Under the pieces are notes generated by a model that was given only the letters and a program-made list of their open reading frames with translations, was not told the DNA's origin and searched no databases. Positions 1 through 21,121 of a stretch of 64,000 bases of DNA are shown here, piece by piece; position 1 is the first letter of the stretch; each line of letters begins with the position of its first letter. A program made the position numbers and the translations under genes. The stretch comes from a virus, in IMG/VR virus record IMGVR_UViG_3300045988_121909. One strand, written 5' to 3'.

Positions 1-576
1 CTAAGTAACGGAATCAAGATTCCTCCCTTTAATTATGCTAAGAGTAATCGTAATAAGATTGCATCTATGGATAGAAAGCTTTCTAAAATGAGAGACAAGT
101 TGAAGAAAGTTAGTATTGATTATGAGAATGCGAGTAATTATCAAGCATATAAGAAGAAAGTTGCTAAATATAAGACTCATATTGCGAATAAACGTAAAGA
201 CGCTCTAAACAAGCTCACTACGCAACTTGTAACGAAATATGATTTTATTGCTGTTGAAGATTTGAACGTAAAAGGTATGAGTAAAAATCATAGACTTGCT
301 TATGCTATTCAAGACGCTAGCTGGTCAATGTTTACAAGCATGTTAGAGTATAAATGTAAGTGGTATGGAAAAGTATTTCATAAAATAAACAGATTTAAGC
401 CAACAAGCACATTATGTTCATCATGCGGTACTAAGCACAAGGAGATTGTTAACTCACTCGATGTTAGAGAATGGGTTTGTCCTGATTGTGGTACGCATCA
501 CGATAGAGATGTAAATGCTGCAGTGAATATTTTGACTGTTGGCATAAATGAATTAGTTAATACAAGATGCGGTTGA
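1..576 (+). CDS. tnpB: IS200/IS605-family TnpB (OrfB) RNA-guided endonuclease, C-terminal part; reading frame is open to the left window edge
   Basis: C-terminal RuvC-II (IAVEDLN), CxxC...CxxC zinc finger (CSSCG..CPDCG) and RuvC-III (HHDRDVNAAVNIL) motifs typical of TnpB. No stop codon between position 1 and the first ATG, so the gene is 5'-truncated by the window. Confidence 0.8.
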   Translation, partial: LSNGIKIPPFNYAKSNRNKIASMDRKLSKMRDKLKKVSIDYENASNYQAYKKKVAKYKTHIANKRKDALNKLTTQLVTKYDFIAVEDLNVKGMSKNHRLAYAIQDASWSMFTSMLEYKCKWYGKVFHKINRFKPTSTLCSSCGTKHKEIVNSLDVREWVCPDCGTHHDRDVNAAVNILTVGINELVNTRCG

Positions 577-682
577 CGACCGTATTCTCGCCTGGTAAAT
601 TTGCTCTGGAGGGTAGCTAGTTTTTAAACTGACGAGAGTGACCTAAGCTTACCCAGGAATGCGCTTAGCGCAGCGTCATAAC
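567..682 (+). ncRNA. TnpB 3'-end / right-end element, omega-RNA-like scaffold, copy 1 (overlaps the tnpB stop codon)
   Basis: Conserved ~115-nt segment (tgcggttgacgacc...cctggtaa...ttacccagg...gcgcttagcgc..gtcataa) with internal complementary stretches. Repeated at 3705-3820 and 21004-21121. Confidence 0.5.
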
Positions 683-912
683 ATGCCTACAGTAATACAG
701 AGATTTGATTTCATAAAACACATTGCAGATACGCTAGGCACTGCAGTGTAAAGGAGAGTCATGAAGAAAATAATTGCAATCATAGTAGGTTGTGGAATTA
801 TACTAACATTCTTTTATTTAGCTAATATGAGAGTTAGTGATACACTTTTAGAAATAGACACAAAACAACCTGCTGGAGTATTTAGACCTTTTATAGATAG
901 GATATTATCACG

Positions 913-1104
913 ATGACAGTACAGCTAGTCACAGATAGGGAAGTTCTGCATACTGAGATTTTTAATTCATTTGAAGAGTTTAAAGACTACTTAGTATCAA
1001 AGCAGACAGGTAAAATCAAAACGTATAAATGCGGCAATGATGCATACTACATTGATTTTGGCAGTAGTGAGCAGTATTTGCTTATTAGAGAGGAAGAATT
1101 ATGA
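913..1104 (+). CDS. hypothetical protein (63 aa)
   Basis: ORF on the coding strand; stop overlaps the next start (ATGA). Confidence 0.4.
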   Translation: MTVQLVTDREVLHTEIFNSFEEFKDYLVSKQTGKIKTYKCGNDAYYIDFGSSEQYLLIREEEL

Positions 1105-1535
1105 AGAAAGATTACTATTTTGCTTCGGGATGGTGGAGTACCCTCGAAATTGAAAATTACGAAACGATTACAAAAATACTTAAAGACAAAGGCTTTACTT
1201 TGTTTGAGCCAAAGTACGACGTAGGCACAGGTTCAGGTGGTCCACTCACACTAGAAAAAGCTAGAGAGATTTTTAAAGGCGATATTAACGGCATAACTCA
1301 GTGTAAAGCATTATTCGCTGACATAAGCTTTTCTGATAAAGGAGTTTTAGTAGAGATTGGCGTAGCACTAGCGAATAATATTCCAGTTATACTATTTGAT
1401 AACTCACCGAGAAAAGTAATGAATGTTATGCTAGCAGGTAGTGCTAAGAATTGTCTAAGAACATTTGACGACGTGATTGCATTCGCTAATGGCGAAGATG
1501 TGTTTAACTTAGGCGAAGACGTAGAGTTTCAGTAG
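1101..1535 (+). CDS. nucleoside 2-deoxyribosyltransferase-like protein
   Basis: N-terminal YYFASGWWS motif and internal VEIGVALANNIPVILF motif resemble the Rossmann-like nucleoside deoxyribosyltransferase fold. Inference from motifs only. Confidence 0.4.
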   Translation: MKKDYYFASGWWSTLEIENYETITKILKDKGFTLFEPKYDVGTGSGGPLTLEKAREIFKGDINGITQCKALFADISFSDKGVLVEIGVALANNIPVILFDNSPRKVMNVMLAGSAKNCLRTFDDVIAFANGEDVFNLGEDVEFQ

Positions 1536-1544
1536 AGGTTTAAT

Positions 1545-2339
1545 ATGGATAATATTATTATTTTAGCAAATGACGTTATTCAACTTAAAGCTCAGTTTGA
1601 AAACTTGCCTGAGTTAAAATGTAAGTATACAATAGTCAATGAATCTCGTATTGGCAATAAAGTCGATGAGATGAAAAGACTAGCAGAAGACTTAAACATA
1701 CCGGCAGAAATAGTAGATGGGCAGATTATAGTTGATAAGTTTAAGAAAGAAGTTATTGACAATGATTTTGTTGACTCATATCATATGGGTTTAAATCTCT
1801 TATTGCCTTGGTATTATAAAGAGGGTTTATTTACTGAAGAAGATGTAATTTTATCTGAAGGTATAGAAGATGTATTTAATCTGCCTAACTCTGCTTTTGT
1901 TACATCTACTTTGAGTTATAAAAGCTCTAACGCTGTAAGACCTGAGCTAGAAAAGATTTTTATGTCATTCTCAGACGAAGAGTGGAAATATACACATACG
2001 ATGAGCGGTCAGCGTTTATATAAAGATTTTAATTTTGATTTGTATGAAAAGAGATTGTATGATTTCTATGATTCTGAATTTCTAAGAGATTTCTGGAGTA
2101 AGAAACGCAGTCATCGTTCTGGCTTTTTAGATGAAAGATTTGAAAGCTGTTTCTTATATGAATCAGGCATTTTAAACAATGATTTATCAAAGTACACACA
2201 GATTGAAGTACGCAAACCTGAAAAAGTAGATTTCAGCAAGTATAAGATAAAGAAACCTCTCTGGCATAACGCGACAGCAAGTCATAAACTAAAATGGCTG
2301 AAAGCGTTACGTGAGCATAATATCATCAAAGGAGATTAA
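1545..2339 (+). CDS. hypothetical protein (264 aa)
   Basis: Long ORF; RBS-like sequence upstream. Confidence 0.5.
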   Translation: MDNIIILANDVIQLKAQFENLPELKCKYTIVNESRIGNKVDEMKRLAEDLNIPAEIVDGQIIVDKFKKEVIDNDFVDSYHMGLNLLLPWYYKEGLFTEEDVILSEGIEDVFNLPNSAFVTSTLSYKSSNAVRPELEKIFMSFSDEEWKYTHTMSGQRLYKDFNFDLYEKRLYDFYDSEFLRDFWSKKRSHRSGFLDERFESCFLYESGILNNDLSKYTQIEVRKPEKVDFSKYKIKKPLWHNATASHKLKWLKALREHNIIKGD

Positions 2340-3324
2340 GTTGAAAGTAGCAGTTATATCAGATTTACATATAGGGCAAACATTATACAGAAATACTGAT
2401 GATGGTTTAAACAAATACGAAGCTATTCTTTACGATAAGCTAGAAGAGTATGTAGAAGAATGCAAAAAAGCTGACGTAGTGATTATCTGTGGTGATGTAT
2501 TTCACGTACCTAACCCGAGTATAATCGCGATTAATAAATTTAATGAGATGTACGATACGTTAGTTGATAACTGTAGTGATGTTTCAATTATTCTAGGTAA
2601 TCACGACTTTAATCTACAACAAGCTAAGCATAACACTAGTTCTGTTTCAGCTTTAACTGATTTTTGTATTGATTTTAATACAAGCTCTATTCAGTATGAT
2701 GATGTAGTATTTCATTTTGTGCCTTGGTCTTTTAGTGCTGAGCAGAAAAAGGAATTTGAAGAGCAAGTACTAAAGAATCTAGATAAAAAGAAATATAACG
2801 TGCTCATAGCGCACGGCACTACTGAAACATATATGAATCAGTTTAATGTTAATATTGCTTTTGATATTCCTGATGAGTTTATAAAACATTTTGACTTAGC
2901 ATTCATCGGGCACGTACACGAGTATAAAGAATATAAAGTGGGTAAGACTAAAACATTTTCTGTAGGTTCAATCATAAACCCTACAGCGACGAAATGTGAT
3001 ACTGGAATTATATGGTTTGATACACTAACAAAAAAGATTACTCGTCAGCATATAGATACTCCGTATACAGAGAAAATCACTACTGATGATATAAGTGATA
3101 TTGAAGTAAAAAACAACATCTATAAAATAACATACACAGGTGATGTAAATAAAATAGATGATGAAAAATTTAATGAGTTAAAGAAAAAAGCACTCGCTGT
3201 ATCACTAGAACTACCTAATGAAGATATAGAAGAATCAGATGAAAATTTTGAAAGTGACTTTATGACTTGGTTGCAAGACAACTACAGTGACAAAGTAGAC
3301 TTATTTAAGAAAATAAGCGAATAA
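2311..3324 (+). CDS. SbcD/Mre11-family DNA repair exonuclease (T4 gp47-like)
   Basis: Calcineurin-like phosphoesterase motifs in order: ISDLHIG, GDVFH, LGNHD, AHGT, GHVHE. Length of 337 aa is close to T4 gp47. The true start may be the TTG at 2341. Confidence 0.8.
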   Translation: MSIISSKEIKLKVAVISDLHIGQTLYRNTDDGLNKYEAILYDKLEEYVEECKKADVVIICGDVFHVPNPSIIAINKFNEMYDTLVDNCSDVSIILGNHDFNLQQAKHNTSSVSALTDFCIDFNTSSIQYDDVVFHFVPWSFSAEQKKEFEEQVLKNLDKKKYNVLIAHGTTETYMNQFNVNIAFDIPDEFIKHFDLAFIGHVHEYKEYKVGKTKTFSVGSIINPTATKCDTGIIWFDTLTKKITRQHIDTPYTEKITTDDISDIEVKNNIYKITYTGDVNKIDDEKFNELKKKALAVSLELPNEDIEESDENFESDFMTWLQDNYSDKVDLFKKISE

Positions 3325-3344
3325 TCAAGAAAGGGGGACTAAAT

Positions 3345-3659
3345 ATGCATATCAGTTATTTTGACGAAAATTTCTTGAATCACATAAAAGAAAAAGAGAT
3401 TGAGCCTACTATGGCGCTTACAGATGAAGAGATATGGCAAGAGGGTTTGGTAACCTACATATTCTCTGCTGAAGTCAAGGGTGACACATTAATTCTACAC
3501 GCAGGCGCTGAAGAGGAAGTAGAGCCGTATGTATTTTCAGATATTGAATTATTCGATGATGTAGAGCAAGTAGTATTTGAGCATAACAGTAAACAGATAA
3601 ATGATTTTGAATTAATCGATGTTGACTGGGACGAAAATATTTTTTACTTTTGTGCTTAA
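3345..3659 (+). CDS. hypothetical acidic protein (104 aa)
   Basis: ORF with RBS (aaaggggga) upstream. Confidence 0.5.
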   Translation: MHISYFDENFLNHIKEKEIEPTMALTDEEIWQEGLVTYIFSAEVKGDTLILHAGAEEEVEPYVFSDIELFDDVEQVVFEHNSKQINDFELIDVDWDENIFYFCA

Positions 3660-3664
3660 TAAGG

Positions 3665-3692
3665 TTTACAGTAAATAAAAATTGTGATATAA
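3665..3692 (+). promoter_or_regulatory. sigma70-like promoter (GTTTACA, about 17 nt, TATAAT) positioned to transcribe solo omega-RNA-like copy 2
   Basis: gtttacagtaaataaaaattgtgatataat, followed within ~12 nt by the conserved aatgcggttgacgac start of the repeat. Confidence 0.55.
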
Positions 3693-3704
3693 TAGTATAT
3701 ACAA

Positions 3705-3820
3705 AATGCGGTTGACGACCGTGTAATCGCCTGGTAAATTGCTCTGGATGGTAGCTAATTTGAAGATTGGTGAGAGTGACCTAAGCTTACCCAGGAATGT
3801 GCTTAGCGCAACGTCATAAT
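3705..3820 (+). ncRNA. solo omega-RNA-like / TnpB right-end element, copy 2 (no adjacent tnpB)
   Basis: About 90% identical to 567-682 with a variable central hairpin. Driven by its own promoter. No ORF. Confidence 0.5.
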
Positions 3821-4005
3821 GATAATTACATTAAGCATAGGCGTCTGAGAATCAAGATGCTGCGTGTGAATCTGATGAACTTGCACGTAGAACAACATCG
3901 CTTATTCGAATAGCATACGCTCAAGTCAGTATGTATCTTCATCAAATATATTCTGCTTGAAACTATATTTACGTCTATGCTTTTATCAAAAAAAAGGTGT
4001 AAACA

Positions 4006-4212
4006 ATGCTTGATATTTTAAAACGAGTCAGAGTAAAAGCTGATAGAAAATGCGCAATGTGCGGTAGAACAATTCGCGAAGGTAGTTCTTGCTATACTCA
4101 CAGCGTCAAATATAAGGGTCGAGGCTGGGTATGCAGAAACTGCTACGACGAAATGGAAGAAGACGAAATGTTGCTTGAAGAACTATCGTACGACGACTAT
4201 TACGATTGGTAA
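4006..4212 (+). CDS. small zinc-ribbon protein (68 aa)
   Basis: CAMCG...CRNC cysteine pairs; acidic C-terminus; RBS aaaaaggtg upstream. Confidence 0.5.
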   Translation: MLDILKRVRVKADRKCAMCGRTIREGSSCYTHSVKYKGRGWVCRNCYDEMEEDEMLLEELSYDDYYDW

Positions 4213-4236
4213 TTTACACTTACATTTTAAAGATTC

Positions 4237-4310
4237 GGGTCAGTAGCTCAGTTGGTTAGAGCGTCCGGCTGTTAACCGGAAGGTCGTAAGTTCGAGTCTT
4301 TCATAAATCA
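4237..4310 (+). tRNA. tRNA-Asn(GTT)-like, probable pseudo-tRNA
   Basis: Canonical D-arm (tagctcagttggttagagc) and anticodon arm (tccgg ctGTTaa ccgga). The T-arm is present, but the 3' strand (ataaatc) cannot pair with the 5' acceptor (gggtcag). Confidence 0.4.
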
Positions 4311-4316
4311 AATTAC

Positions 4317-4391
4317 GGCGCCATTGTAGAAAGGTTAGTACACAAGGTTTTCATCCTTGAAGTCTGGGTTCGAGTCCCAGTGGCGTCACCA
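4317..4391 (+). tRNA. tRNA-Glu(TTC)
   Basis: Acceptor ggcgcca/tggcgtc; anticodon arm caagg ttTTCat ccttg; T-arm ctgggttcgagtcccag; CCA encoded. Confidence 0.8.
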
Positions 4392-4555
4392 AACGAAAGT
4401 AGCTTGCCTAATTAGACAAGGGTTCGTCTAACAAAGTAAACTGCTTACTGATAGTTTTTACTATCGACAAAGCGAACAGTAGTATAAGTATATTATTTAT
4501 TCATTTACGAGTAAGATTCATAACTGAGATTGTTATGACTGTTCGCCAATTATAT

Positions 4556-4630
4556 AGTCCGTTAGTTTAATGGTTAAAATGTCCGGCTGTCGACCGGATG
4601 ACGAGGGTTCGATTCCCTTACGGACTGCCA
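4556..4630 (+). tRNA. tRNA-Asp(GTC)
   Basis: Perfect 7-bp acceptor agtccgt/acggact; anticodon arm tccgg ctGTCga ccgga; T-loop ttcgatt; CCA encoded. Confidence 0.85.
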
Positions 4631-4635
4631 AATAT

Positions 4636-4711
4636 GCCTTGTTAGCTCAGTTGGTAGAGCACACGACTTTTAATCGTGGAGTCCAGAGTTCGAATCTCTG
4701 ACAAGGCACCA
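4636..4711 (+). tRNA. tRNA-Lys(TTT)
   Basis: Acceptor gccttgt/acaaggc; D-arm tagctcagttggtagagc; anticodon arm cacga ctTTTaa tcgtg; CCA. Confidence 0.85.
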
Positions 4712-4737
4712 AAAATTTATCTTAGATGTATTAAAAA

Positions 4738-5511
4738 TTGAAGTTAGAAACAAGAGAAAAGATAAGACAGAGTCTTAAAAATCATTACAGAGAGCATAGA
4801 AAAGAAAAACACTGCAAATTCTGTGGAAGAACAATCTCTACTGATAGAAGAAAATCAAAATACTGTAGTGATGAGTGCAGAATTAGAGATAATCAAGTCA
4901 TTTCACTGATAAAATATTTTGAATTTGACTCATCTGTGATTGGGACTACTGAAGTTTTTGATGAATGGGATAGAGTTAAACATACACTAGAAAAATTGTA
5001 CTGGAAAGAAGAAAAGACTTCAACAGAGATTTGCAAAATGTTTGGTTATCCAAATAGCAGTAATCTAACAAGTAAAATATTCAAATATCTCGAAATAAAA
5101 TCTAAAACTGCTCAAGAGTCAACTCATTTAAACTATAAAAATGGAATTTTAACTCCGCCTACAAATAACACGTATCATCAAGGGTGGCATACTACTTGGG
5201 ATAATAAGAGAGTATATCTAAGAAGTTCGTATGAATTTGAGTTCGCTAAGCGTTTAGATAGATTGCATACTCGTTACACAGTTGAAGAATTAAGAATTGA
5301 GTATTTTGACACAGTTAAAAATTATAAAAGAATAGCAATTCCTGATTTTTATATCTCTAAAGAAAATTTAATTGTTGAAGTTAAATCTAACTATACACTT
5401 AATATTCAAAATATGATTGATAAAGCTAGAGAGTATAGAGCGCAAGGATATAATTTTTTATTATTTTTAGAAAATCGTTATTTAACGCTTGAAGAATTAG
5501 AAAATATGTAG
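4738..5511 (+). CDS. homing-endonuclease-like protein with N-terminal zinc ribbon / NUMOD-like repeats and a C-terminal PD-(D/E)XK (Vsr/DUF559-like) nuclease domain
   Basis: CKFCG...CSDEC zinc motif and an ETREKIRQSLK NUMOD3-like repeat. C-terminal PDFYI...LIVEVK (D..E.K) motif. Embedded in the tRNA cluster. Apparent TTG start. Confidence 0.55.
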   Translation: MKLETREKIRQSLKNHYREHRKEKHCKFCGRTISTDRRKSKYCSDECRIRDNQVISLIKYFEFDSSVIGTTEVFDEWDRVKHTLEKLYWKEEKTSTEICKMFGYPNSSNLTSKIFKYLEIKSKTAQESTHLNYKNGILTPPTNNTYHQGWHTTWDNKRVYLRSSYEFEFAKRLDRLHTRYTVEELRIEYFDTVKNYKRIAIPDFYISKENLIVEVKSNYTLNIQNMIDKAREYRAQGYNFLLFLENRYLTLEELENM

Positions 5512-5584
5512 GCATAGTGTAATTGGTTAACACGCTTGTCTTCCAAACAAGCATTAGGGGTTCAAGTCCCCTTGCCTGCTCCAA
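5509..5584 (+). tRNA. tRNA-Gly(TCC)
   Basis: Acceptor gtaggca/tgcctgc; anticodon arm cttgt ctTCCaa acaag; T-arm aggggttcaagtcccct; CCA. The 5' end overlaps the stop codon of the preceding CDS. Confidence 0.75.
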
Positions 5585-5592
5585 AAAATATG

Positions 5593-5665
5593 CCAGTGTA
5601 GTTTAATGGTAAAACAGGTGTTTTGTAATCATCGGTTGGGAGTTCGATTCTCTCCACTGGCTCCA
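5593..5665 (+). tRNA. tRNA-Thr(TGT)
   Basis: Acceptor gccagtg/cactggc; D-stem gttt/aaac; anticodon loop ttTGTaa, with a U-U pair at 31-39; CCA. Confidence 0.7.
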
Positions 5666-5911
5666 AATAAATATAAGCGTTGAGAATTAAATACCTATGC
5701 TGCATATGAACGTGATAAACTCATATGTAGAACAACATAGATACCAGACTTTGTCTATTTGGTTTTGCTAATAAAACTCAAAGTCTAAAAAGATTCGAAA
5801 GAGGCTGATTTAATAAAATTAGAATTATCGCTCTTATCAAGCGATAGTTGCATAAACTAGTAATTGTGAAGATAACTTAGTCGATGCCATATCTTACGCT
5901 TATATTTTTAC

Positions 5912-5985
5912 GGGCTGATAGTTCAATGGGAGAACATACGGCTTGCATCCGTATAATGAGAGTTCAATTCTCTCTCAGTCCACCA
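5912..5985 (+). tRNA. tRNA-Ala(TGC)
   Basis: Acceptor gggctga/tcagtcc; anticodon arm tacgg ctTGCat ccgta; T-arm gagagttcaattctctc; CCA. Confidence 0.8.
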
Positions 5986-5989
5986 TTCA

Positions 5990-6073
5990 CGGAGGATAGT
6001 CTAACTGGTAAGACACCGAACTGTAACTTCGGCGCTTTATGGCTTGTAGGTTCAAGTCCTACTCCTCCGACCA
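5990..6073 (+). tRNA. tRNA-Tyr(GTA), type II (long variable arm)
   Basis: Acceptor cggagga/tcctccg; anticodon arm ccgaa ctGTAac ttcgg; long variable arm; T-arm gtaggttcaagtcctac; CCA. Confidence 0.8.
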
Positions 6074-6092
6074 AATTTAAGGAGATATTAAG

Positions 6093-6353
6093 ATGTTAGT
6101 AGAAGTTAAGCAAATAACAGAATATCTTGATTCTAATGTCAGTCATAGAGCTATTGTAGAGATAGAACGTGACGGCTTAGGCAGATTTAAGTTTATGTCA
6201 GGACGTTTTAAGAGAGTTTACACTAATCTTACTTTTCCTGAGCTTAATGCTTCAATCAATGTTGAATATATCTGTATGTCAGATGGCAAGTACAATATGT
6301 CTTTAACTGATTTTGAAGAATTTTATCTCTTGAATGCTCTTCAGAGACACTGA
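6093..6353 (+). CDS. hypothetical protein (86 aa)
   Basis: ORF with RBS (aaggagat) upstream. Confidence 0.5.
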   Translation: MLVEVKQITEYLDSNVSHRAIVEIERDGLGRFKFMSGRFKRVYTNLTFPELNASINVEYICMSDGKYNMSLTDFEEFYLLNALQRH

Positions 6354-6405
6354 TTTGACTTCTGAGAGCTTTTCATATACATCTTAATAAAATATGCGCC
6401 TGTGG

Positions 6406-6472
6406 TGGAATTGGCATACACGGTAGTCTTAGAAACTACTTTTTGCGGGTTCAAGTCCCGCTGGGCGTACCA
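6406..6472 (+). tRNA. tRNA with anticodon TAG (nominally Leu) but a short variable arm (type I)
   Basis: Perfect anticodon arm gtagt ctTAGaa actac; T-arm gcgggttcaagtcccgc; CCA. The acceptor has three G-U pairs. No long variable arm. Confidence 0.55.
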
Positions 6473-6480
6473 CTAATACA

Positions 6481-6512
6481 GATAGAACTAATCTTCTATC
6501 TATTTTTTTTGT
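6481..6512 (+). terminator. rho-independent terminator after tRNA cluster 1
   Basis: Hairpin agatagaa-ctaat-cttctatct followed by a T8 run. Confidence 0.6.
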
Positions 6513-6516
6513 TTTT

Positions 6517-6546
6517 GTTTACATTACTCTGATTTTATGTTAATAT
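6517..6546 (+). promoter_or_regulatory. promoter of the GTTTACA-N17-TAtAAT class
   Basis: gtttacattactctgattttatgttaatat, located after a T-run. Confidence 0.5.
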
Positions 6547-6573
6547 TAAATAAAAAACTAAAGGAGAGAGATT

Positions 6574-7401: not shown

Positions 7402-7404
7402 GAA

Positions 7405-8040: not shown

Positions 8041-8052
8041 AAGGAGATTTAA

Positions 8053-8556: not shown

Positions 8557-8573
8557 AGAAGGAAGAAGAGAAT

Positions 8574-9683: not shown

Positions 9684-9685
9684 AT

Positions 9686-9715
9686 GTTTACATTTTATCT
9701 AGATTGTGATATAAT
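9686..9715 (+). promoter_or_regulatory. promoter GTTTACA-N17-TATAAT driving tRNA cluster 2
   Basis: gtttacattttatctagattgtgatataat immediately upstream of tRNA-His. Confidence 0.55.
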
Positions 9716-9731
9716 ATAATTTATATCATAT

Positions 9732-9807: not shown

Positions 9808-9813
9808 AATTAT

Positions 9814-10815: not shown

Positions 10816-10854
10816 ACTTATATAAATTAAATCAAGCGTAAAACAGAGGTAATT

Positions 10855-11802: not shown

Positions 11803-12019
11803 GGAGATAAATATGGAACTCATAGCTACATTAGCTTTATTGTTAGTTATACTTATAATCGCGTTTGTCTTTAAATTTTGTTTAATACTTTTACTCATTG
11901 TAGCTCCTTTATACCTTTTATATAAAAATACTTTAAAGATGTAAGCAATTACATCTTTTTTTTTGTTTACATTTACTCTTGTGTATGTTATTATTAATTA
12001 TATAAAGGAGATAAATATT

Positions 12020-14233: not shown

Positions 14234-14235
14234 AA

Positions 14236-14262
14236 TCAAGCATTACGCTTGATTTTTTTTTA
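14236..14262 (+). terminator. rho-independent terminator
   Basis: Hairpin atcaagc-atta-cgcttgat followed by a T9 run. Confidence 0.65.
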
Positions 14263-14263
14263 T

Positions 14264-14293
14264 GTTTACATCATTCTGAATAAGTGATATAAT
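14264..14293 (+). promoter_or_regulatory. promoter GTTTACA-N17-TATAAT upstream of rtcB
   Basis: gtttacatcattctgaataagtgatataat. Confidence 0.55.
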
Positions 14294-14326
14294 AAATATA
14301 TCAACTACTTAAGGAGAAGTTCATTT

Positions 14327-15520
14327 ATGTTCGAATTAAACGGAAAGTATGGTACAGCAAAAATATTTACAGACAACTGCGAAGTAGAAGCGCAGACACA
14401 GATAGTTAATCTTCTAAATCAGCCTTTTGCTAAAGATAGTAATGCTCGCTTTATGCCCGATGTTCACGCAGGTAAAGGTTGTACTGTGGGTACTACTATG
14501 AAAATCGTAGATAGAGCTTGTCCTAATCTTGTAGGTGTAGACATTGGCTGCGGTGTAGAAGTTTATAAGTTTAAGGCAGATGAAATAGATTTCGCTAAGC
14601 TAGATGAAATGCTACAAGCAAATACAAAAGTACCTTATGGTTTTAGTAAGAGAAATACTGCTCATAGATTTGCAAATGACGCAAGACTAAAAGAGTTAAA
14701 ATGTTTTGATACTATTGACTATAATGGCGCTATGCTATCTCTAGGTTCTTTAGGCGGTGGTAATCACTTTATCGAAATAAATGTTGATGAAGAGGGTTAT
14801 AACTACTTAGTTGTACACTCGGGTTCAAGACATCTTGGCATAGAGATTTGTAAGTACTACCAAGATATCGCTGAAAAGAATGAAAACAATGTAGATGTAA
14901 ATGCAGTTATTGAAGATTTAAAGAGAGCTGATAGACAGAGCGAAATACAAAACGAAATAAAGAGAATAAAAGAAGAATATCCAATCATACCTAAAGATTT
15001 AAGATGTGTTATGGGTACAGACTTAGAAGATTATCTACATGATATGAATATAGCTACTGAGTACGCTTCTTTATCAAGACAAGCTATAGCTGATGAGATT
15101 ATCTCATATATGAATTGGGATATACTAGAGCATTTCTGCTCTATTCATAATTACATTGACGTAGAAAATAAGATTATTCGTAAAGGTGCAATCTCTGCTC
15201 AAAAGGGTGAGAGAATAATCATCCCTATCTCTATGAAAGATGGTTCAATTATTGGTATCGGTAAAGGTAATTCTGACTGGAACTGCTCTGCTCCTCACGG
15301 CGCAGGTAGAGTTCTTTCTAGAAGTGCTGCTAAAGCTACTCTAACTGTAGAAGAGTTTGAAAAATCTATGGAAGGTATTTATACATCTTGCGTTGGTAGA
15401 AGTACTCTTGATGAATCTCCTATGGCATATAAGCCTCTTGATGAGATTAAGGCTGCAATCGCTGATACAGTAGATATTGAGCGTATAATTAAGCCAATTT
15501 ATAATTTTAAAGCTAATTAA
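14327..15520 (+). CDS. rtcB: RtcB-family RNA 3'-phosphate/5'-OH ligase
   Basis: Diagnostic RtcB motifs MPDVHAGKG, GGGNHFIEI, HSGSRHLG and APHGAGR. Length 397 aa; RBS aaggagaag. Confidence 0.85.
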   Translation: MFELNGKYGTAKIFTDNCEVEAQTQIVNLLNQPFAKDSNARFMPDVHAGKGCTVGTTMKIVDRACPNLVGVDIGCGVEVYKFKADEIDFAKLDEMLQANTKVPYGFSKRNTAHRFANDARLKELKCFDTIDYNGAMLSLGSLGGGNHFIEINVDEEGYNYLVVHSGSRHLGIEICKYYQDIAEKNENNVDVNAVIEDLKRADRQSEIQNEIKRIKEEYPIIPKDLRCVMGTDLEDYLHDMNIATEYASLSRQAIADEIISYMNWDILEHFCSIHNYIDVENKIIRKGAISAQKGERIIIPISMKDGSIIGIGKGNSDWNCSAPHGAGRVLSRSAAKATLTVEEFEKSMEGIYTSCVGRSTLDESPMAYKPLDEIKAAIADTVDIERIIKPIYNFKAN

Positions 15521-15533
15521 GGTGAGGTAAAGT

Positions 15534-16049
15534 ATGACAGATGAAATAAAAGATTTACTAATAAATTGTAAAGCGGATTGCGAAAGAGCAGATGATAGAG
15601 CACAAAACGCTATATCAAGTCTTGACGCGTTTGAAACTGAGTATGCAGACTTGCTAAGAGAAAGAACTAGACTTGAGCTAGATGCTGTAAACGCAGTACG
15701 TTTTCGCGATAAGCTGTATGATGATGTCGAGTTTCAGTTATTCAAAAGAATAAAAGCACGTAATGCAGACATACAGAAGTTTATAACAGCTCAGTGGGGA
15801 TGTGATATAAAAGCATTGATTGAGTTATTCAGTGCGATGCATGAAGCTGAATTATTTGGCTTTATGCGAATTGGTAGTACTTTTGGTGGTATTGAAGTTT
15901 GCTCAAACGACAACTTTAATATACGTTGCATTGAAGGAATAGACAGAATTAATTACGTAATCGACACGAAAAATGCACAAATAGCACTTTATACAGAAAA
16001 AGACACGAAAAAGTTAATAGATATTGATTTTATTGATTTAAGATATTAA
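15534..16049 (+). CDS. hypothetical protein (171 aa)
   Basis: ORF with RBS (aaggtgagg). Confidence 0.5.
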   Translation: MTDEIKDLLINCKADCERADDRAQNAISSLDAFETEYADLLRERTRLELDAVNAVRFRDKLYDDVEFQLFKRIKARNADIQKFITAQWGCDIKALIELFSAMHEAELFGFMRIGSTFGGIEVCSNDNFNIRCIEGIDRINYVIDTKNAQIALYTEKDTKKLIDIDFIDLRY

Positions 16050-16061
16050 GAAGGTAAGCAA

Positions 16062-16379
16062 ATGAATAACGACATCAAATTCTTCTATAAGTTTATGCAA
16101 GACGTAGCATTTACTAAAGCCTTTGACATTTATGCGTTTGAATGTTTTATCGATATTCTTGATAGAGTTAAACTAGATGAATTAAACATTGGTGATACTC
16201 TATCTGAACGTCTTGTTGAATGTTCTTGCTATGCTTACTCTGTAAAGTATTATGCATTCGATGAAGAAAATATTCTATGTCAGATTAGAGACGATATATC
16301 TAGTAGTACATTGAGCATTTTCATAGATAAAGATAGAAAGATTTTTCATATATCTTTAGACTCAATTTTATTACAATAA
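16062..16379 (+). CDS. hypothetical protein (105 aa)
   Basis: ORF with RBS (gaaggtaag). Confidence 0.5.
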   Translation: MNNDIKFFYKFMQDVAFTKAFDIYAFECFIDILDRVKLDELNIGDTLSERLVECSCYAYSVKYYAFDEENILCQIRDDISSSTLSIFIDKDRKIFHISLDSILLQ

Positions 16380-16455
16380 GGCGGCATAGTCCAGTGGCTC
16401 AAGACGGCAGACTGCAAATCTGCTTATCTCAGTTCGATTCTGAGTGCCGTCTCCA
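16380..16455 (+). tRNA. tRNA-Cys(GCA)
   Basis: Acceptor ggcggca/tgccgtc; anticodon arm gcaga ctGCAaa tctgc; T-arm ctcagttcgattctgag; CCA. Confidence 0.8.
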
Positions 16456-16459
16456 TTGT

Positions 16460-16536
16460 AGGGGTATGTTCTAATGGCTTATGATGTCGGTCTCCAAAAC
16501 CGTACGATGTGGGTTCGAGTCCTACTACTCCTGCCA
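16460..16536 (+). tRNA. tRNA-Trp(CCA)
   Basis: Acceptor aggggta/tactcct; anticodon loop ctCCAaa; T-arm gtgggttcgagtcctac; CCA. Confidence 0.7.
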
Positions 16537-16554
16537 ATTTTGAAAGGAAGTAAA

Positions 16555-17346
16555 ATGGAATTCAATTACAAGAAGAAAAGATTTAAGCAGTTTGACGTTA
16601 AGATTGAAATGTTTGAATGTGTTACTCAAGATTATAGTGAAACTCCAATTTTTACAATATCTTTTTACGCTGAAAATAGAAATATCTTGATGAAAGAATT
16701 AAAGAAATTTTTGAAAGAGCGTAATATAGATAATACTGCAAATATATTGTGCGTTCTGAATCGTGCTTCAACAGTATATACACATACACATTACAGACAA
16801 GTCGATAATACAGCTCATTTTATTTCAGGCAACTCGCTTTATAGAGTCACATTCAAATGTATTACATCAAGAGTAAGTTGTATGCCACCTAAAGATAGAG
16901 TAAACAATAAGGGCGAAAATATTCTTGAAAAGAGACTACGTCAAGCTTATGGAGATTTGCTGCTTTATAGATATAGCAAAGCGAGAGAGGTAGCAAATAA
17001 TTCTAGTATTGTAGTTGCAGCACGTAATCATTTAAAAGAAGAACTGCTTAAAAATACTGCAGTCGAGCCATTTAAAGATACAGCATTGCGTATAGACTTT
17101 AATCGCGCTAAAAAGATTACTATTGAGCTTTCAAAGTTTGTGCGTCTAGATTTTAAAGCTGAGTATAAATTCGATAAGACAGCGTTAGACGTTAAATTTA
17201 AGGTATTAAATATTATATATTATGGTAATGCTATACAAGAATTACCTCCTATTAACGATAGTATAGACGAAGAAATAGTTGAGCGTGCAGAAGAGACTGC
17301 TAAGATTTATGAAGAAATTATTTCTCTTTTGAAAAAGAATGCTTAA
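16555..17346 (+). CDS. hypothetical protein, GEN-I-x(2)-KR paralog family member 3
   Basis: ATG at 16555 after aaaggaagt; contains NKGENILEKRLRQ. The longer ORF call overlaps tRNA-Trp. Confidence 0.55.
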   Translation: MEFNYKKKRFKQFDVKIEMFECVTQDYSETPIFTISFYAENRNILMKELKKFLKERNIDNTANILCVLNRASTVYTHTHYRQVDNTAHFISGNSLYRVTFKCITSRVSCMPPKDRVNNKGENILEKRLRQAYGDLLLYRYSKAREVANNSSIVVAARNHLKEELLKNTAVEPFKDTALRIDFNRAKKITIELSKFVRLDFKAEYKFDKTALDVKFKVLNIIYYGNAIQELPPINDSIDEEIVERAEETAKIYEEIISLLKKNA

Positions 17347-17358
17347 AAGGTACTATAA

Positions 17359-17895
17359 ATGAAAAATATTTTAATTCTTGTTGATATGCAGAATGGTTTT
17401 ACTGAGCATCAACGAACAAATGATTTAACAAAAAAGATTGAGAGCATACTTTGTTTATTTGATGAAGTTATAGCAACTCAATATATAAACTATGACAATA
17501 GCGTTTACGAAAATCTAATGCGTTGGTGTCAGTTAAAAAGTAACGACGAGATTGCGATTAGATCTGAACTACAGCCATATATAACTGAAGTTTTTCCTAA
17601 GAGTCTTTATACTTGCATTTCACCAAACTTTATTCAGAGACTTTGTCAGTTAAATGACGGTTTATACCCAACAAAGATTTTTATTGCTGGAGTTGATACA
17701 GACTGTTGTGTGCTAAAGATAGCAACTGATTTGTTTGAGAGTAATATTAGACCTGTTGTACTTACAGAGTACTGTTACTCTAATGGTGGAGAAGAATCTC
17801 ATAAATCTGGCATTTTATGCATGAAAAGACTACTTGGAGATAAACAGCTAGTAGATGCTATTCTTACTACAAATTCAGATATTAATTTGTTGTAA
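17359..17895 (+). CDS. isochorismatase-family cysteine hydrolase (nicotinamidase/PncA-like)
   Basis: ILVDMQNGF N-terminal motif and IAGVDTDCCV catalytic-cysteine region, typical of isochorismatase-fold hydrolases. Confidence 0.55.
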   Translation: MKNILILVDMQNGFTEHQRTNDLTKKIESILCLFDEVIATQYINYDNSVYENLMRWCQLKSNDEIAIRSELQPYITEVFPKSLYTCISPNFIQRLCQLNDGLYPTKIFIAGVDTDCCVLKIATDLFESNIRPVVLTEYCYSNGGEESHKSGILCMKRLLGDKQLVDAILTTNSDINLL

Positions 17896-17901
17896 AAAGA
17901 T

Positions 17902-17931
17902 GTTTACAAATAGGTTGTAATATGTTATAAT
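17902..17931 (+). promoter_or_regulatory. promoter GTTTACA-N17-TATAAT with ~140-nt structured leader before the HE gene
   Basis: gtttacaaataggttgtaatatgttataat. The leader contains a 9-bp inverted repeat, agcgcttaa...ttaagcgct. Confidence 0.5.
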
Positions 17932-18078
17932 TTATTTAAATTTATCGAAAGTGATTAATTCGATGAATTCCCAGCGCTTAATCAATAGGAAGTCAGCTAG
18001 TGTAATCAACTTCGCTGCACTGAGGACAGGCAGAAACCTCTAAGCGCTAACTTATCAAGGTAAAGGATAATAAATTTA

Positions 18079-18984
18079 TTGACAAATAGCATTGCAAATA
18101 CGAAAACATTTAAATGTGCGTGTGGAAAAGAATTTATAAACGGTCAGCAGTTTAATGGTCATAAGTCTAGATGCAAGATACACCATTTGAATAAATACGG
18201 TAATCTTGATATTTATGATAAAGTGCAATCTGCATTATCCAATGGTATGTCAATAAGTAAAAAACAAAAAGCAAAAGAAAAGCGTCAAACACGCATGCAA
18301 ACATGGGTTGATGAAAAGCATCAATGCGAAAAATGCGGTAAAATAATGGCAGTTTTCTATGGCTCAGGAAGATTCTGCTCGCGTAGTTGCGCTAATAGTA
18401 AACAACATTCTGAAGAAACTAAAACTAAAATAAGTAAAGCTCTAAAACTAGACGTAGAAAAGAAGTTTTGTAAGCAATGCGGCAAAGAATTATGTTCTAG
18501 AAATATAAGTGGTTACTGTAAAGTTTGTCTTAGAACTTGTGATGAATTTCATGAGCAAAGAAAACTAAGCGCTAGAAAAGTTTACGAAAATTCTGTTAAA
18601 AACGGTACATTTAAAGGATGGCAACTAAGAAATGAAACACCGTTTTCTGAAAAATTTTTTATTAACATACTCAATCAGCATAAAATACCGTATACCCATA
18701 ATAAACCCGTAAAGCAATCAAATAATCGCTATTGTTATTTTCTTGATTTTTACATAGAGTTACCTGACATGAAACTCGATTTAGAAATTGATGGCAAGCA
18801 ACACAAATACCCTGAACGAAAAGAAGCAGATAAGCGTAGAACAGCTGAATTAGAAAATTTAGGTTATACAATATATAGAATTGAATGGAATGAAGTAAGA
18901 ACAGAAAAAGGAAAATTACAATTAAATCAGAAAGTAGAAGATTTTTTAAATTTTCTATATAAGAATGGTTTTAAAAAGATATAG
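18079..18984 (+). CDS. homing-endonuclease-like protein (zinc-ribbon repeats plus C-terminal PD-(D/E)XK nuclease), paralog of 21813-22703
   Basis: N-terminal half about 70% identical to the ORF at 21813 (CxCGKEF..QQFNGHKS..GSGRFCSRSCAN). C-terminal DFYIE...LEIDG..H nuclease motif. Apparent TTG start. Confidence 0.6.
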   Translation: MTNSIANTKTFKCACGKEFINGQQFNGHKSRCKIHHLNKYGNLDIYDKVQSALSNGMSISKKQKAKEKRQTRMQTWVDEKHQCEKCGKIMAVFYGSGRFCSRSCANSKQHSEETKTKISKALKLDVEKKFCKQCGKELCSRNISGYCKVCLRTCDEFHEQRKLSARKVYENSVKNGTFKGWQLRNETPFSEKFFINILNQHKIPYTHNKPVKQSNNRYCYFLDFYIELPDMKLDLEIDGKQHKYPERKEADKRRTAELENLGYTIYRIEWNEVRTEKGKLQLNQKVEDFLNFLYKNGFKKI

Positions 18985-19059
18985 GCTATTAGCTCAGGTG
19001 GTTAGAGCATTCGTCTGATACGCGAAAGGTCTTAAGTTCGAATCTTAAATAGCCTACCA
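18983..19059 (+). tRNA. tRNA-Ile(GAT)
   Basis: Acceptor aggctat/atagcct; D-arm tagctcaggtggttagagc; anticodon loop ctGATac; T-arm cttaagttcgaatcttaa; CCA. Confidence 0.8.
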
Positions 19060-19071
19060 ATAAGAGAATTT

Positions 19072-19144
19072 CACTGATTACAGTTTAATTGGGTAAACGT
19101 CTGCAATAGCAGAAGATTGCGGGTTCAAGTCCCGTCTTCAGTGG
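19072..19144 (+). tRNA. irregular tRNA-like element (possible pseudo-tRNA)
   Basis: Recognisable D-arm (gtttaattgggtaaac), T-arm (gcgggttcaagtcccgt) and a 6/7 acceptor pairing. No foldable 5-bp/7-nt anticodon arm and no encoded CCA. Confidence 0.3.
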
Positions 19145-19498
19145 GTGCACAGATTCTCTTTATGGCTACTTAGAGCTCTGAGTAGCCGTCTACGGTCACA
19201 CAGTACAGCCTGCACGCGGCGTGACTGCTACATAACTAATGTACTAAAGAATGGACATTATGAAAAGGGTAAGTCAGTGAGTAGCCATGTCGGCGCAATA
19301 GCTGAGATAATCTTACTTGGTAGTGAAGTTAGTTTTAATCTAACGTATAACTTTTCATAATAATGAGTAGCTCAATTTTCTACCGCCAGTAATGAGGAAA
19401 TACGAGAGTGAAAGTCAAACTTATGTAGCCGATATTCGTATTAGTCGGTAAAGCTCTAAAGCTAGCTAGACAGAGCCTACATAAGTCAGTCCATATAT

Positions 19499-19574
19499 GC
19501 TGGTATAGCTCAATTGGTAGAGTACTTGTTTTGTAATCAAGGTGTTGGGGGTTCAAATCCCTCTATCAGCTCCA
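19499..19574 (+). tRNA. tRNA-Thr(TGT), second copy with a different body
   Basis: Acceptor gctggta/tatcagc; anticodon loop ttTGTaa with U-U at 31-39; T-arm gggggttcaaatccctc; CCA. Confidence 0.65.
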
Positions 19575-19575
19575 G

Positions 19576-19602
19576 TTTATGCAACGTATGTTGCATTTTT
19601 TT
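19576..19602 (+). terminator. rho-independent terminator
   Basis: Hairpin atgcaac-gtat-gttgcat followed by a T9 run. Confidence 0.65.
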
Positions 19603-19664
19603 TTATGTTAGTTTACAAGTTGATAAAAATAGTTTATTATATCTATAGAGGAGATTAAAAAACT

Positions 19665-20291
19665 ATGAGTACATTAACTACATTAATTAATTTTGTATCA
19701 ATATTGATAATTATATACAATACGCTTGATGCTTTATTATTTAGCAGAGCAAGACTTAATAAGCAGCTTAGTACTCTTGCTGAAGAAAAGCATAAATCAT
19801 CGTTTGCAATGATTGTATCGCTTGCGATTATATTAGTGGTAAATACATATTTCGTGATTACCACTGATACATCTCAATATTTGTTTGCAGGCGAAGTATT
19901 TCTTGTTTTTATAATGTTTATGAATTATATTTCATTCATTACAAAAGAAGAGTGTTGTACAGTAGTTATTGAAGATACTGTACGAAATACAATTAATATT
20001 GTGCGTATGGAAAATATTAAGCTATGTAAAAAGTATTCAGACGTACTACCTGCTGAATTAGTTAATGATGTTTTAAACTATAATGGCGAAATTAATTTTA
20101 ATTATGCAGGTTATCGAGAAGATTTTTGCAAAGAGATTGTTAAACCGTACTATGAAAAATTATTAATAAGAGAAACATTTAATACAGATGAAGAAATAGA
20201 ATCGTTTGAAATGAATGTACTCTTAAAAGAATTAATACGGTTTTACGCTAATATGCGTGAATTCGTAAACGAGCATGAGTGTATAAGATAA
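19665..20291 (+). CDS. membrane protein (208 aa)
   Basis: Two N-terminal TM helices; soluble C-terminal domain. Confidence 0.5.
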   Translation: MSTLTTLINFVSILIIIYNTLDALLFSRARLNKQLSTLAEEKHKSSFAMIVSLAIILVVNTYFVITTDTSQYLFAGEVFLVFIMFMNYISFITKEECCTVVIEDTVRNTINIVRMENIKLCKKYSDVLPAELVNDVLNYNGEINFNYAGYREDFCKEIVKPYYEKLLIRETFNTDEEIESFEMNVLLKELIRFYANMREFVNEHECIR

Positions 20292-20301
20292 AGGAGAGAC
20301 T

Positions 20302-20967
20302 ATGATATTAGTAGAGTATTTAATATTCAGTTTATATTTATTTTTTCAATTTATTATGTTTTTAGTATTTAATGACATCGCTAAGATAGATTTTAAAGTC
20401 GATACGTCTTCAAACGATATTACAGTCGCATTTCTTAAATGGGTATTAAGCTTTTGGTTTACGGTTAATTCTGTAGCTATGGTTGCAGCAATGTTAAATG
20501 TTTTATTTGTAAAAAGTTTCTCTATTATCTTTGGCATTATGATTATTTTAGTTGCAGTAATACATATACTCTTATGTACATATATGAAAAAGAGTGTAAA
20601 AGAACTAAAAATAAAAGAAGTATTAACTGCTTGTTCAGACAGAGACTACGATGTAAACGCGATAGAAAGTTACATTCACTCTTATAACATAGATAAGATA
20701 TATAAAGAGCTTATCCTACCTCTTCATAATTTAATCATAGCAAGAGATAGCTTTAAAACAGTTGAAGCGCAAGAAAAGTATGATGAAGTAGTACTAAACG
20801 AAGAAATAGAAATATTTATGAAGAATCTAGAGTATGTAATTAATGAAGAAAAAGAAAATCGTGAGAAAGCAAGACAGCAAAAAGAAAACATAGCAAAAAT
20901 ATCTGATGAAAAGATACTAGACAATATAAAGAAAAACTACAAAGGGTTAGAAAAATACTACGAGTAG
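20302..20967 (+). CDS. membrane protein (221 aa)
   Basis: Three or four N-terminal TM helices; Lys/Glu-rich C-terminus. Confidence 0.5.
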   Translation: MILVEYLIFSLYLFFQFIMFLVFNDIAKIDFKVDTSSNDITVAFLKWVLSFWFTVNSVAMVAAMLNVLFVKSFSIIFGIMIILVAVIHILLCTYMKKSVKELKIKEVLTACSDRDYDVNAIESYIHSYNIDKIYKELILPLHNLIIARDSFKTVEAQEKYDEVVLNEEIEIFMKNLEYVINEEKENREKARQQKENIAKISDEKILDNIKKNYKGLEKYYE

Positions 20968-20996
20968 TTTACGTATCAAGCCATTTGTGATATAAT
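20967..20996 (+). promoter_or_regulatory. promoter GTTTACG-N17-TATAAT positioned to transcribe solo omega-RNA-like copy 3
   Basis: gtttacgtatcaagccatttgtgatataat, ending 7 nt before the conserved aatgcggttgacgac. Confidence 0.5.
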
Positions 20997-21003
20997 AATA
21001 TTA

Positions 21004-21121
21004 AATGCGGTTGACGACCGTATTCTCGCTTGGTAAATTTGCTCTAGAGGGTAGTTAGTTTTAAAGCTAACGAGAGTGACCTAAGCTTACCCAGGAATGC
21101 GCTTGAGCGCAACGTCATAAT
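21004..21121 (+). ncRNA. solo omega-RNA-like / TnpB right-end element, copy 3
   Basis: Conserved with copies 1 and 2. Followed about 15 nt later by a hairpin (aaagagaat..attctcttt) and a T-run. Confidence 0.5.

Follow-up and report, generated by a model that had tools for sequence, protein, structure and literature searches.

TnpB is the ancestor of Cas12, and its natural job is thought to be selfish homing, which to our knowledge has been shown so far in bacterial chromosomes and plasmids. Its known domesticated derivatives are the TnpB-like nuclease-dead repressors (TldR) of prophages, whose guides target a specific promoter elsewhere. According to PMC10691335 (citing Altae-Tran 2021), standalone omega RNAs without effector or transposase coexist with effector loci and work in trans, and the gene-less omega RNAs of PATEs are expected to need TnpB in trans (Meers 2023; PMC10055086). 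For co-infecting phages or plasmids, a 2026 review puts forward "non-restorative homing" and cites TnpA-independent spread in a plasmid population (PMC13565253). Here we analyse a 64,000-nt stretch of viral DNA (IMG/VR record IMGVR_UViG_3300045988_121909; hereafter the window), which begins inside a tnpB gene, tnpB-1, and contains three same-strand copies of a repeat of about 120 nt at 566-684, 3705-3822 and 21004-21123, the first at the end of tnpB-1 and the other two solo. We lean towards a reading in which the solo copies are recent, gene-less right-end remnants of an IS200/IS605-family insertion sequence (IS) that TnpB-1 may use in trans for selfish homing.

The window is part of the 190.5-kb metagenomic phage contig L001 (window position equals L001 position minus 8900; other loci carry L numbers of the same kind). 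Two sister genomes were available for comparison: IMG/VR UViG_3300045988_098416 (_098416; 191.7 kb), which may be one genome with the 192.0-kb contig ERZ772949 NODE-5, and UViG_3300045988_112802 (_112802; 173.7 kb). The complete tnpB-1, recovered from the parent contig left of the window (L001 8301-9476), has a GTG start and encodes 391 aa. The protein contains HTH_OrfB_IS605, OrfB_IS605 and Cas12f1-like_TNB domains above the Pfam cutoffs and matches the ISDra2 TnpB structures 8h1j/8exa at E=2e-67, with conservation of the D-E-D residues and of the zinc finger. The RuvC-II Glu (AVEDLN) and RuvC-III Asp (HDRDVNAA) reported by the first-pass annotation are present, and the RuvC-I motif, which it feared might be inactivated in the missing N-terminal part, is intact (GIDLG) and accompanied by a CxxC..CxxC zinc finger. 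Judged by these motifs, TnpB-1 is apparently an intact, active-looking nuclease. A tblastn search for tnpA found none in the window or the 20-kb parent segment; across the window and all loci, matches came only from L048/L049 and L034. The left-end motif had 0 matches in the window and 0 in IMG/VR. A second, distant tnpB-like open reading frame (ORF) lies at 58288-59454 (388 aa, 29% identical to TnpB-1), with OrfB_IS605 below the Pfam cutoff, a RuvC-II region reading AFQDEN that suggests a possible shift of the catalytic Glu, and no repeated copy of its 3' flank in the window. Repeats near this ORF were considered as solo copies of its omega RNA and rejected as unrelated intergenic repeats.

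The repeat was first noticed as a segment of about 115 nt spanning the 3' end of tnpB, and copy 1 indeed overlaps the last 10 nt of the ORF. A 28-nt core, GAGAGTGACCTAAGCTTACCCAGGAATG, is identical in the three copies (at 634, 3772 and 21072) and gave 0 matches in 100 shuffles. Pairwise identities are 82-91% over 128-149 nt in self-BLAST, copy 3 being closest to copy 1 (91-92%) and copies 2 and 3 only 82-84% identical. A covariance model trained on five tnpB-linked copies only, including copy 1 of the window and no solo copy, has exactly three full-length matches in the window, namely copy 1 (137 bits), copy 3 (129 bits) and copy 2 (122 bits); tnpB-linked copies score 117-138 bits on the same model. 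In the predicted fold, a 5' hairpin precedes a long central helix, which encloses the variable hairpin, and ...GCGTCAW comes after the 3' hairpin. In a 34-sequence structural alignment, itself fitted to the covariance model, 88.5% of cells pair, compared to 31-44% in slid controls, and 22 of 35 pairs show double changes (covariation score 0.344 versus 0.04-0.09, with 0 of 500 shuffles attaining the observed value). A MAFFT/RNAalifold alignment of 24 copies lost the 3' hairpin, whose loop lengths vary, and the model-based alignment was used instead. The proposed pattern of conserved flanks around a variable central hairpin holds, with compensatory changes in that hairpin. Moreover, of 36 positions invariant over 21 tnpB-linked copies, copy 2 keeps all 36 and copy 3 keeps 35.

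A profile search recovered homologues from other large phage contigs, placed immediately 3' of tnpB homologues with 45-87% identity; in total, some 30 further phage loci have such a scaffold behind tnpB. A degenerate core pattern returned 17 IMG/VR stretches; the 16 examined have tnpB directly upstream wherever the upstream sequence suffices, and the seventeenth, L047, is the sister phage _098416, which carries two copies. Four further tnpB relatives (L083, L085, L086 and L088) again have the scaffold directly after tnpB, with no additional solo copies and no full-length IS at either solo site. Conservation across homologues ends at ...GTCAW, beyond which the sequences diverge. On this comparative evidence, the repeat is the predicted omega-RNA scaffold of TnpB together with the right end of an IS200/IS605-family element, as the first-pass annotation had proposed for the scaffold. 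None of the copies matches Rfam 15 at the gathering score or at E<=5, from which it follows only that the lineage is not represented among the curated models. Not one of 185,579 bacterial and archaeal species genomes contains the core pattern, and the lineage therefore looks phage-restricted, having been seen so far only in large phage contigs; in JGI metagenomes the pattern occurs at 4 loci only, all within the same phage group. INPHARED phage records contain no DNA match to window positions 1-4200 or to the repeat, and the nearest cultured phages by protein are distant Firmicutes myoviruses at 36-40% identity.

An independent family of phage small-RNA genes, beside one member of which tnpB landed by chance, would also place two stand-alone copies behind promoters near tRNA genes and would fit the missing Rfam match. 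We give this explanation next to no credence, in view of the roughly 30 loci in which the RNA lies directly 3' of tnpB and changes in step with it, even where protein identity has fallen to 45%. Free-standing copies were seen in this phage group only, and the promoters concerned have no solo copy in sister phages.

The promoters themselves are as canonical as first described: TTTACA-N17-TATAAT before copy 2 (11 of 12 consensus positions) and TTTACG-N17-TATAAT before copy 3 (10 of 12), both with a TG extension. The solo scaffolds begin 8-12 nt past them. The units are inserted within the -10 hexamer (TAT/AAT, the slash here and below marking a junction), and their first bases rebuild TATAAT; the unit lies in the -10 box because the IS inserts after a short (D)WAT motif, for which the junctions are given below. 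The solo copies are gene-less, as had been noted, with neither tnpA nor any other gene, and start directly at the -10 box with no left-end sequence or left-end-type hairpin. Copy 2 is precisely missing from _112802, where the empty allele reads TTTACAGTAAATAAAAATTGTGATATAAT/AAATACATTATTAAGCATAGG, compared to ...TATAAT AGTATATACAAAATGCGG...CGTCATAAT GATAATTACATTAAGCATAGG at the filled site in the window. Copy 3 is absent from both sisters. In _098416 the tRNA-operon promoter is continuous with the same leader (...GTGATATAAT/ATTATTTATTAAAGAGAATTTACC...), and in _112802 the first bases of the leader differ. As the same promoters stand unoccupied in sister phages, they are not part of a guide-RNA gene, and on this comparison both belong to the phage and predate the solo units; the notion of promoter-equipped guide-RNA genes does not survive. 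A hairpin and T-run do follow copy 3, as first reported; a terminator scan gave no hit there, and since they also occur in the unoccupied allele, they represent the native leader of the tRNA operon.

Placed in this way, the solo units are probably transcribed as operon leaders, one of a small structured RNA and the other of the tRNA operon. At the latter, RNase P processing at tRNA-Gly (21162) would free the copy-3 scaffold plus about 40 nt. The candidate structured RNA of about 150 nt (3833-3982; folding z = -3.3, no Rfam match) lies directly downstream of copy 2, which landed in its promoter, and is closed by a 12-bp stem with the arms AAGCATAGGCGT and ACGTCTATGCTT.

In order to define the ends of the element, we compared occupied and unoccupied sites among relatives. 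A complete IS is present in L077/L078, in the order phage promoter, left end, tnpA (136 aa), tnpB (3'-truncated), internal promoter, scaffold and right end, with the left-end junction ...GTTATA/CGAGCTTAAGCTAGAAAAGTGCTTGGCTTTAGATGAGCAC. In L048, the left junction reads GTGTTATA/CGAGC... followed by the left end, and the right end reads ...GCGTCAAAATTTTTG, compared to GTGTTATAATTTTTG at the window site; excerpted differently, the right end is ...GCGTCAAAATTTTTGTATAAAGAG and the unoccupied window sequence GTGTTATAATTTTTGCATAAAGAG. An interpretation of the L048 left junction as truncated tnpA coding sequence was rejected, as comparison with L077 shows it to be the left end itself. The left-end hairpin of L086 is identical to the right-end 3' hairpin (ATGCTTGGCTTTAGACGAGCAT), and a left-end hairpin matching that of the right end is the classical IS200/IS605 arrangement. 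Filled and empty site pairs exist for copy 3, copy 2, L048 and _098416. Seven junctions obey one rule, in which the right end stops at GTCAW/ and the empty site has TTAT, ATAT, GTAT or AAAT directly 5' of the flank. Two earlier placements of the right-end boundary, after ...GTCA and then after ...CATAAT/, were dropped on the basis of the L048/L077 left-end and L051/L077 right-end junctions. From these alignments we infer (D)WAT as the target motif, or target-adjacent motif (TAM); TTAT is a known TnpB TAM, that of ISDge10 (PMC13507860).

Consensus promoters of the form TTTAC(A/G)-N16-18-TATAAT occur 14 times on the + strand of the window and 0 times on the - strand, and 4 of the 14 have received independent insertions at TAT/AAT of the extended -10 box (the L048 IS, the left end of the L077 IS and solo copies 2 and 3). 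Given the 574 DTATA pentamers on the + strand, random choice among them would put four of five insertions in promoters with p ~2e-6. The preference for -10 boxes could reflect either single-stranded DNA in open complexes or survivorship in a gene-dense genome. Separately, the IS copies of relatives have rearrangements beside the right end (L048 11334-11410 versus window 53020-53665; L077 versus window 33124-41722). L048 lacks the 208-aa gene 53022-53648, the sequence breaking off about 17 nt beyond the right-end junction, and L077 lacks 8.6 kb, for which recombination between two IS copies may be responsible.

The left edges of the solo units, AAT AGTATA(TAC)AAAATGCGG and AAT AATATTAAATGCGG, correspond to what lies just after an IS-internal -10 box in L048 (TTTTATAAT AGTATAAAATGCGG) and in L077, a box situated between tnpB and the scaffold, and an origin from full insertions is therefore most likely. 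The full IS would insert in the phage -10 box, turning TATAAT into TATACG. TATAAT would be regained, and tnpB lost together with tnpA and the left end, once the phage -10 box and the internal one had been joined by deletion or by an abortive gene conversion. Copy 2 shares sequence blocks with the L048 scaffold, which points to two separate origins for copies 2 and 3. Alternatively, the solo units could be PATE-like miniature transposons that TnpA moved in trans to new (D)WAT sites. In two places the insertion is precise and coincides exactly with the target motif, both terminal hairpins share the 5' arm AATGCG(G/C)TT, and TnpA is present in related phages. We nevertheless regard this route as unlikely: the left-end-type hairpin (GTGCTTGG..GAGCAC) or other left-end sequence is found neither at the left edge nor anywhere in the window, all tnpB-linked copies have the 5' hairpin of the unit within their omega RNA, and it does not resemble the LE/RE (left-end/right-end) hairpin bound by TnpA, and neither the window nor the 20-kb parent segment encodes a TnpA. 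Furthermore, copies 2 and 3, at 82-84% identity, are each nearer to a different IS sublineage, arguing for two origins.

All three loci are presence/absence polymorphic among phages that are 93-99% identical. Between the window phage and _098416, the tract L001 8146-9579 (in the window, up to 679), which contains a diverged 128-nt ORF copy, tnpB and the scaffold, differs at only 4 of 1,434 nt, whereas over 3 kb of flank to either side there are 10-28 differences per 300 nt (3-9%), with 83 and 42 in the first two 300-nt windows beyond the right end, where a 71-nt indel lies. A low-divergence tract with such sharp borders indicates recent lateral spread of the tnpB cassette by recombination, and in its sequence context the cassette looks like a recombination-spread, homing-endonuclease-like cassette, not an IS pasted by TnpA. 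The duplicate of the 3' end of the upstream 85-aa ORF that lies behind the right end (Table 1) is absent in _098416, and _112802 has the plain ancestral gene order. The 128-nt copy in front of tnpB (L001 8165-8292) is 77-80% identical to L001 7787-7914, the 3' end of an upstream 151-aa ORF. At the second locus, the copy-2 orthologue in _098416 has the copy-1 central hairpin, which suggests gene conversion between copies. DNA on either side of copy 3 is 84-91% identical to _098416, compared to about 98% in nearby regions, which suggests that copy 3 arrived within an imported block. Just upstream of it, a 1.27-kb cassette (19645-20909) with ORFs at 19665-20291 and 20302-20967, neither with a Pfam match, is absent in both sisters.

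Turning to the putative guides, a different sequence follows each copy at the position of a TnpB guide, as first stated; these sequences are merely flanking DNA, as for any IS605 right end. Owing to the 85-aa ORF duplicate behind the right end, guide 1 matches the intact upstream copy: its 18-nt core recurs at L001 8109-8126 inside the intact 85-aa ORF, 1.47 kb upstream in the same genome, and the match is complete bar one motif-proximal mismatch. Guides 2 and 3 have no second match in the window at <=3 mismatches. In IMG/VR, the 20-mer of guide 3 occurs at the unoccupied _098416 site, where GTGATAT stands before it, and in two unrelated AT-rich chance matches. The suggested search for targets next to a motif has yielded a sister empty allele for guide 3 and no second-site targets in the window.

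The first-pass annotation went further and saw a domesticated TnpB rather than an active IS, with several dispersed guide loci possibly directed at competing phages or mobile elements. Spelled out, the phage would keep dedicated promoter-equipped guide genes for such attacks in a proto-CRISPR-like manner. The attraction of this reading is an intact nuclease next to three scaffolds with three different guides and strong promoters, one guide matching an allele of a competitor phage. The promoters are older than the units, however, the guides are only local flanks without second-site targets, and the loci are not conserved even among 93-99% identical phages. The same clade forms a complete transposon in relatives, with left end, tnpA, tnpB, omega RNA and right end (L077), the tnpB of the window behaves as a recently spreading cassette, and its catalytic residues are kept, unlike those of the nuclease-dead TldR. 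We therefore consider domestication improbable. What the same annotation had named as its own undoing, copies that are simple IS ends at ordinary insertions, is largely what is found, with the difference that the copies are complete scaffolds and not decayed ends.

On the favoured reading, in which the solo copies are right-end remnants open to TnpB-1, each solo unit would be transcribed as the 5' leader of its operon, and TnpB from the copy-1 locus would load the solo RNA in trans. The complex would cut the unoccupied allele, consisting of the motif and the same flank, in a co-infecting sister phage. Repair of the break from the occupied genome would then spread the solo unit and neighbouring markers selfishly, in a homing-like manner. 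Tentatively, we extend this to a role of the solo right ends as satellite guide-RNA genes for RNA-guided homing or marker exclusion between co-infecting phages, a possibility we would not put above a minority chance. One tnpB would serve three loci, repair would drag the solo unit, the tRNA operon and adjacent ORF cassettes into the competitor, and the -10-box preference would guarantee expression of each new guide.

Several observations weigh against the favoured reading. Guide 2 has no exact match in IMG/VR. The sole empty copy-2 allele, that of _112802, differs over the first ~12 nt of the protospacer, the next 35 nt being identical, and this rewriting may have arisen by chance or as an escape from cleavage. 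Guide 2 is partly base-paired within the closing stem of the RNA at 3833-3982, which could hinder its use as a guide. Neither solo site has yielded a full-length IS, and the deletion route is conjectural. The (D)WAT motif is short and its position ambiguous by 1 nt; the L083 element lies outside promoters, and in L051 and L077 it is an AAAAT site that the right end adjoins. The phage group is represented in the comparison by only a handful of genomes, all metagenomic. Finally, the solo copies are young, and their intact scaffolds are therefore no proof of selection.

A rival view, to which we assign a real if lesser chance, is that the solo right ends, though of the identity and origin given above, are inert scars: neutral debris transcribed only as operon leaders, not used by TnpB and without effect on phage competition. 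Being recent and polymorphic, they would need no selection to be intact, the copy-2 orthologues of two phages are 88% identical, compared to about 94% for their flanks, with a 3'-hairpin mismatch in one of them, and guide 2, partly sequestered in a stem, is without a natural exact target. Neutral debris accounts less readily for the retention of 35-36 of the 36 positions invariant in tnpB-linked copies, for strong promoters at both solo copies, for the presence, at distances of 3 kb and 20 kb, of a gene for a compatible TnpB with its catalytic residues intact, and for the perfect target of guide 3 beside the motif in a sister phage; standalone omega RNAs have, according to PMC10691335, been shown experimentally to work in trans elsewhere.

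Table 1 Features of the window, with coordinates, strand and the basis of each assignment.
Feature	Position	Strand	Basis or remark
tnpB-1, 3' 576 nt	1..576	+	translation; window begins inside gene; stop codon 574-576
Predicted omega-RNA scaffold/right end, copy 1, tnpB-linked	566..679	+	covariance-model match, covariation, tnpB-linked homologues; ends ...GCGTCAT
Duplicate of upstream 85-aa ORF 3' end (last ~70-80 nt; L001 8104-8185), behind right end	678..757	+	86% identical
Putative guide 1, AACATGCCTACAGTAATACA	680..699	+	right-end boundary from filled versus empty sites; start uncertain by 1 nt
Pre-existing phage promoter (copy 2)	3665..3693	+	29/29 identical in unoccupied sister allele L055 (_112802)
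Solo right end/putative standalone omega RNA, copy 2, 127 nt	3691..3817	+	covariance-model match; TAT/AAT insertion; no left end, no gene
Putative guide 2, AATGATAATTACATTAAGCA, adjacent flank	3818..3837	+	filled/empty comparison
Pre-existing tRNA-operon promoter (copy 3)	20968..20996	+	unoccupied in two sister phages
Solo right end/putative standalone omega RNA, copy 3, 125 nt	20994..21118	+	covariance-model match; TAT/AAT insertion; absent from L053 and L054
Putative guide 3, AATATTATTTATTAAAGAGA, native tRNA-operon leader	21119..21138	+	exact 20-mer in _098416 empty allele
Native leader hairpin AAAGAGAAT..ATTCTCTTT, then tRNA-Gly, first of seven tRNAs (21162-21756)	21133..21239	+	tRNA calls; hairpin in empty alleles
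Unoccupied promoter; left end of complete L077 IS abuts its -10 box in that relative	33097..33125	+	L077/window comparison
Unoccupied promoter; same IS clade inserted in its -10 box in relative L048	52991..53019	+	L048/window comparison
~105-nt intergenic repeats	60031-60134, 39686-39799, 28581-28694 (rc), 59574-59632, 47238-47315, 54231-54276 (rc), 23031-23077 (rc)		
27-29-nt repeat AAAAGAAGTACAACTAAATAAAAAGAG	59535-59563, 59954-59980, 60948-60974, 61645-61671, 28875-28903, 46997-47024, 60500-60527		

Elsewhere in the window there are 25 tRNA genes, and paralogous ORF segments (18111-18439 and 21824-22161; 75% identical over 338 nt) flank tRNA regions. The intergenic repeats near the second tnpB-like ORF belong to an unrelated family of about 105 nt with seven copies in both orientations (rc in Table 1 denotes the reverse complement) and the palindromic core CTCTSAGATATAYYYCAGA. 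An exact 27-29-nt repeat, AAAAGAAGTACAACTAAATAAAAAGAG, precedes several genes and may be a class-specific promoter or regulatory site. A GyrB-like gene (48507-50987) encodes 826 aa in the window and 1,103 aa including an intein-splicing domain in L048/L049, and intein presence is therefore polymorphic in this phage group.

How does this locus compare with described systems? Its closest counterparts are ISDra2/ISDge10-type TnpB proteins with their omega RNAs, with which it shares the domain set, the D-E-D residues and zinc finger and, at E ~1e-67, similarity to the ISDra2 TnpB structures; the short A/T-rich motif resembles the TTAT TAM of ISDge10 (PMC13507860). As in IS200/IS605 elements generally, the stretch between the 3' end of tnpB and the right end encodes a structured RNA, for which the flanking DNA is the guide, the subterminal hairpins of the two ends are similar, and a Y1 TnpA is present in relatives. 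Unlike in those elements, the scaffold lies nearly entirely downstream of the stop codon, with a 10-nt overlap, the lineage is found only in large phage contigs with its insertions concentrated in -10 boxes, and most phage copies are without tnpA and left end and look recombination-spread. The parts of an autonomous IS605 element, a left-end hairpin, a Y1 tnpA and a right end, are together in L077/L078, whereas the window has neither tnpA nor a left end.

With standalone omega RNAs and PATEs, the solo copies share gene-less scaffolds, a compatible effector in the same genome (here in the same contig), their own flank as guide, and insertion polymorphism. The described PATEs are mobilised with both ends, whereas here we find no two-ended gene-less unit, only a right end fused to the -10 box of a host promoter, and the setting is a phage genome, in which the natural target would be a co-infecting sister phage and not a sister chromosome. 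TldR systems likewise pair a phage-encoded TnpB-family protein with a guide RNA; TnpB-1, with its intact catalytic residues, guides that are local flanks and loci not conserved among sisters, is not a member. Neither is the arrangement CRISPR-like, consisting of three dispersed single units 3 kb and 17 kb apart and no array. We found no literature report of promoter-lodged solo omega RNAs in phage, and what is new here is the right-end-only solo unit, the capture of -10 boxes, the phage setting and a new lineage of a known kind of omega RNA.

If the solo RNAs are inert, the locus is ordinary transposon debris. The locus offers a natural test case in virulent-type phages, with a transposase-less intact TnpB, two extra putative guide RNAs behind captured promoters and sister genomes with unoccupied targets, which makes "non-restorative" RNA-guided homing between co-infecting phages testable. 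An IS605 lineage that lands in -10 boxes also bears on phage gene expression and on the origin of standalone guide RNAs. The comparison then extends to phage homing endonucleases such as T4 SegB in the tRNA region (PMC13565253), which are likewise transposase-less nuclease cassettes between conserved genes; the tnpB cassette diverges far less between phages than the DNA around it and includes pieces of foreign flank, and one of the targets is at the head of a tRNA cluster. Unlike for T4 SegB, recognition would here depend on an RNA guide and a short motif rather than on protein, and new target loci could be added by leaving behind an RNA module of about 125 nt. Should this hold true, the system would be an RNA-programmed equivalent of the T4 Seg/Mob endonucleases, and a natural step on the way from a transposon nuclease with one guide to a system with several.

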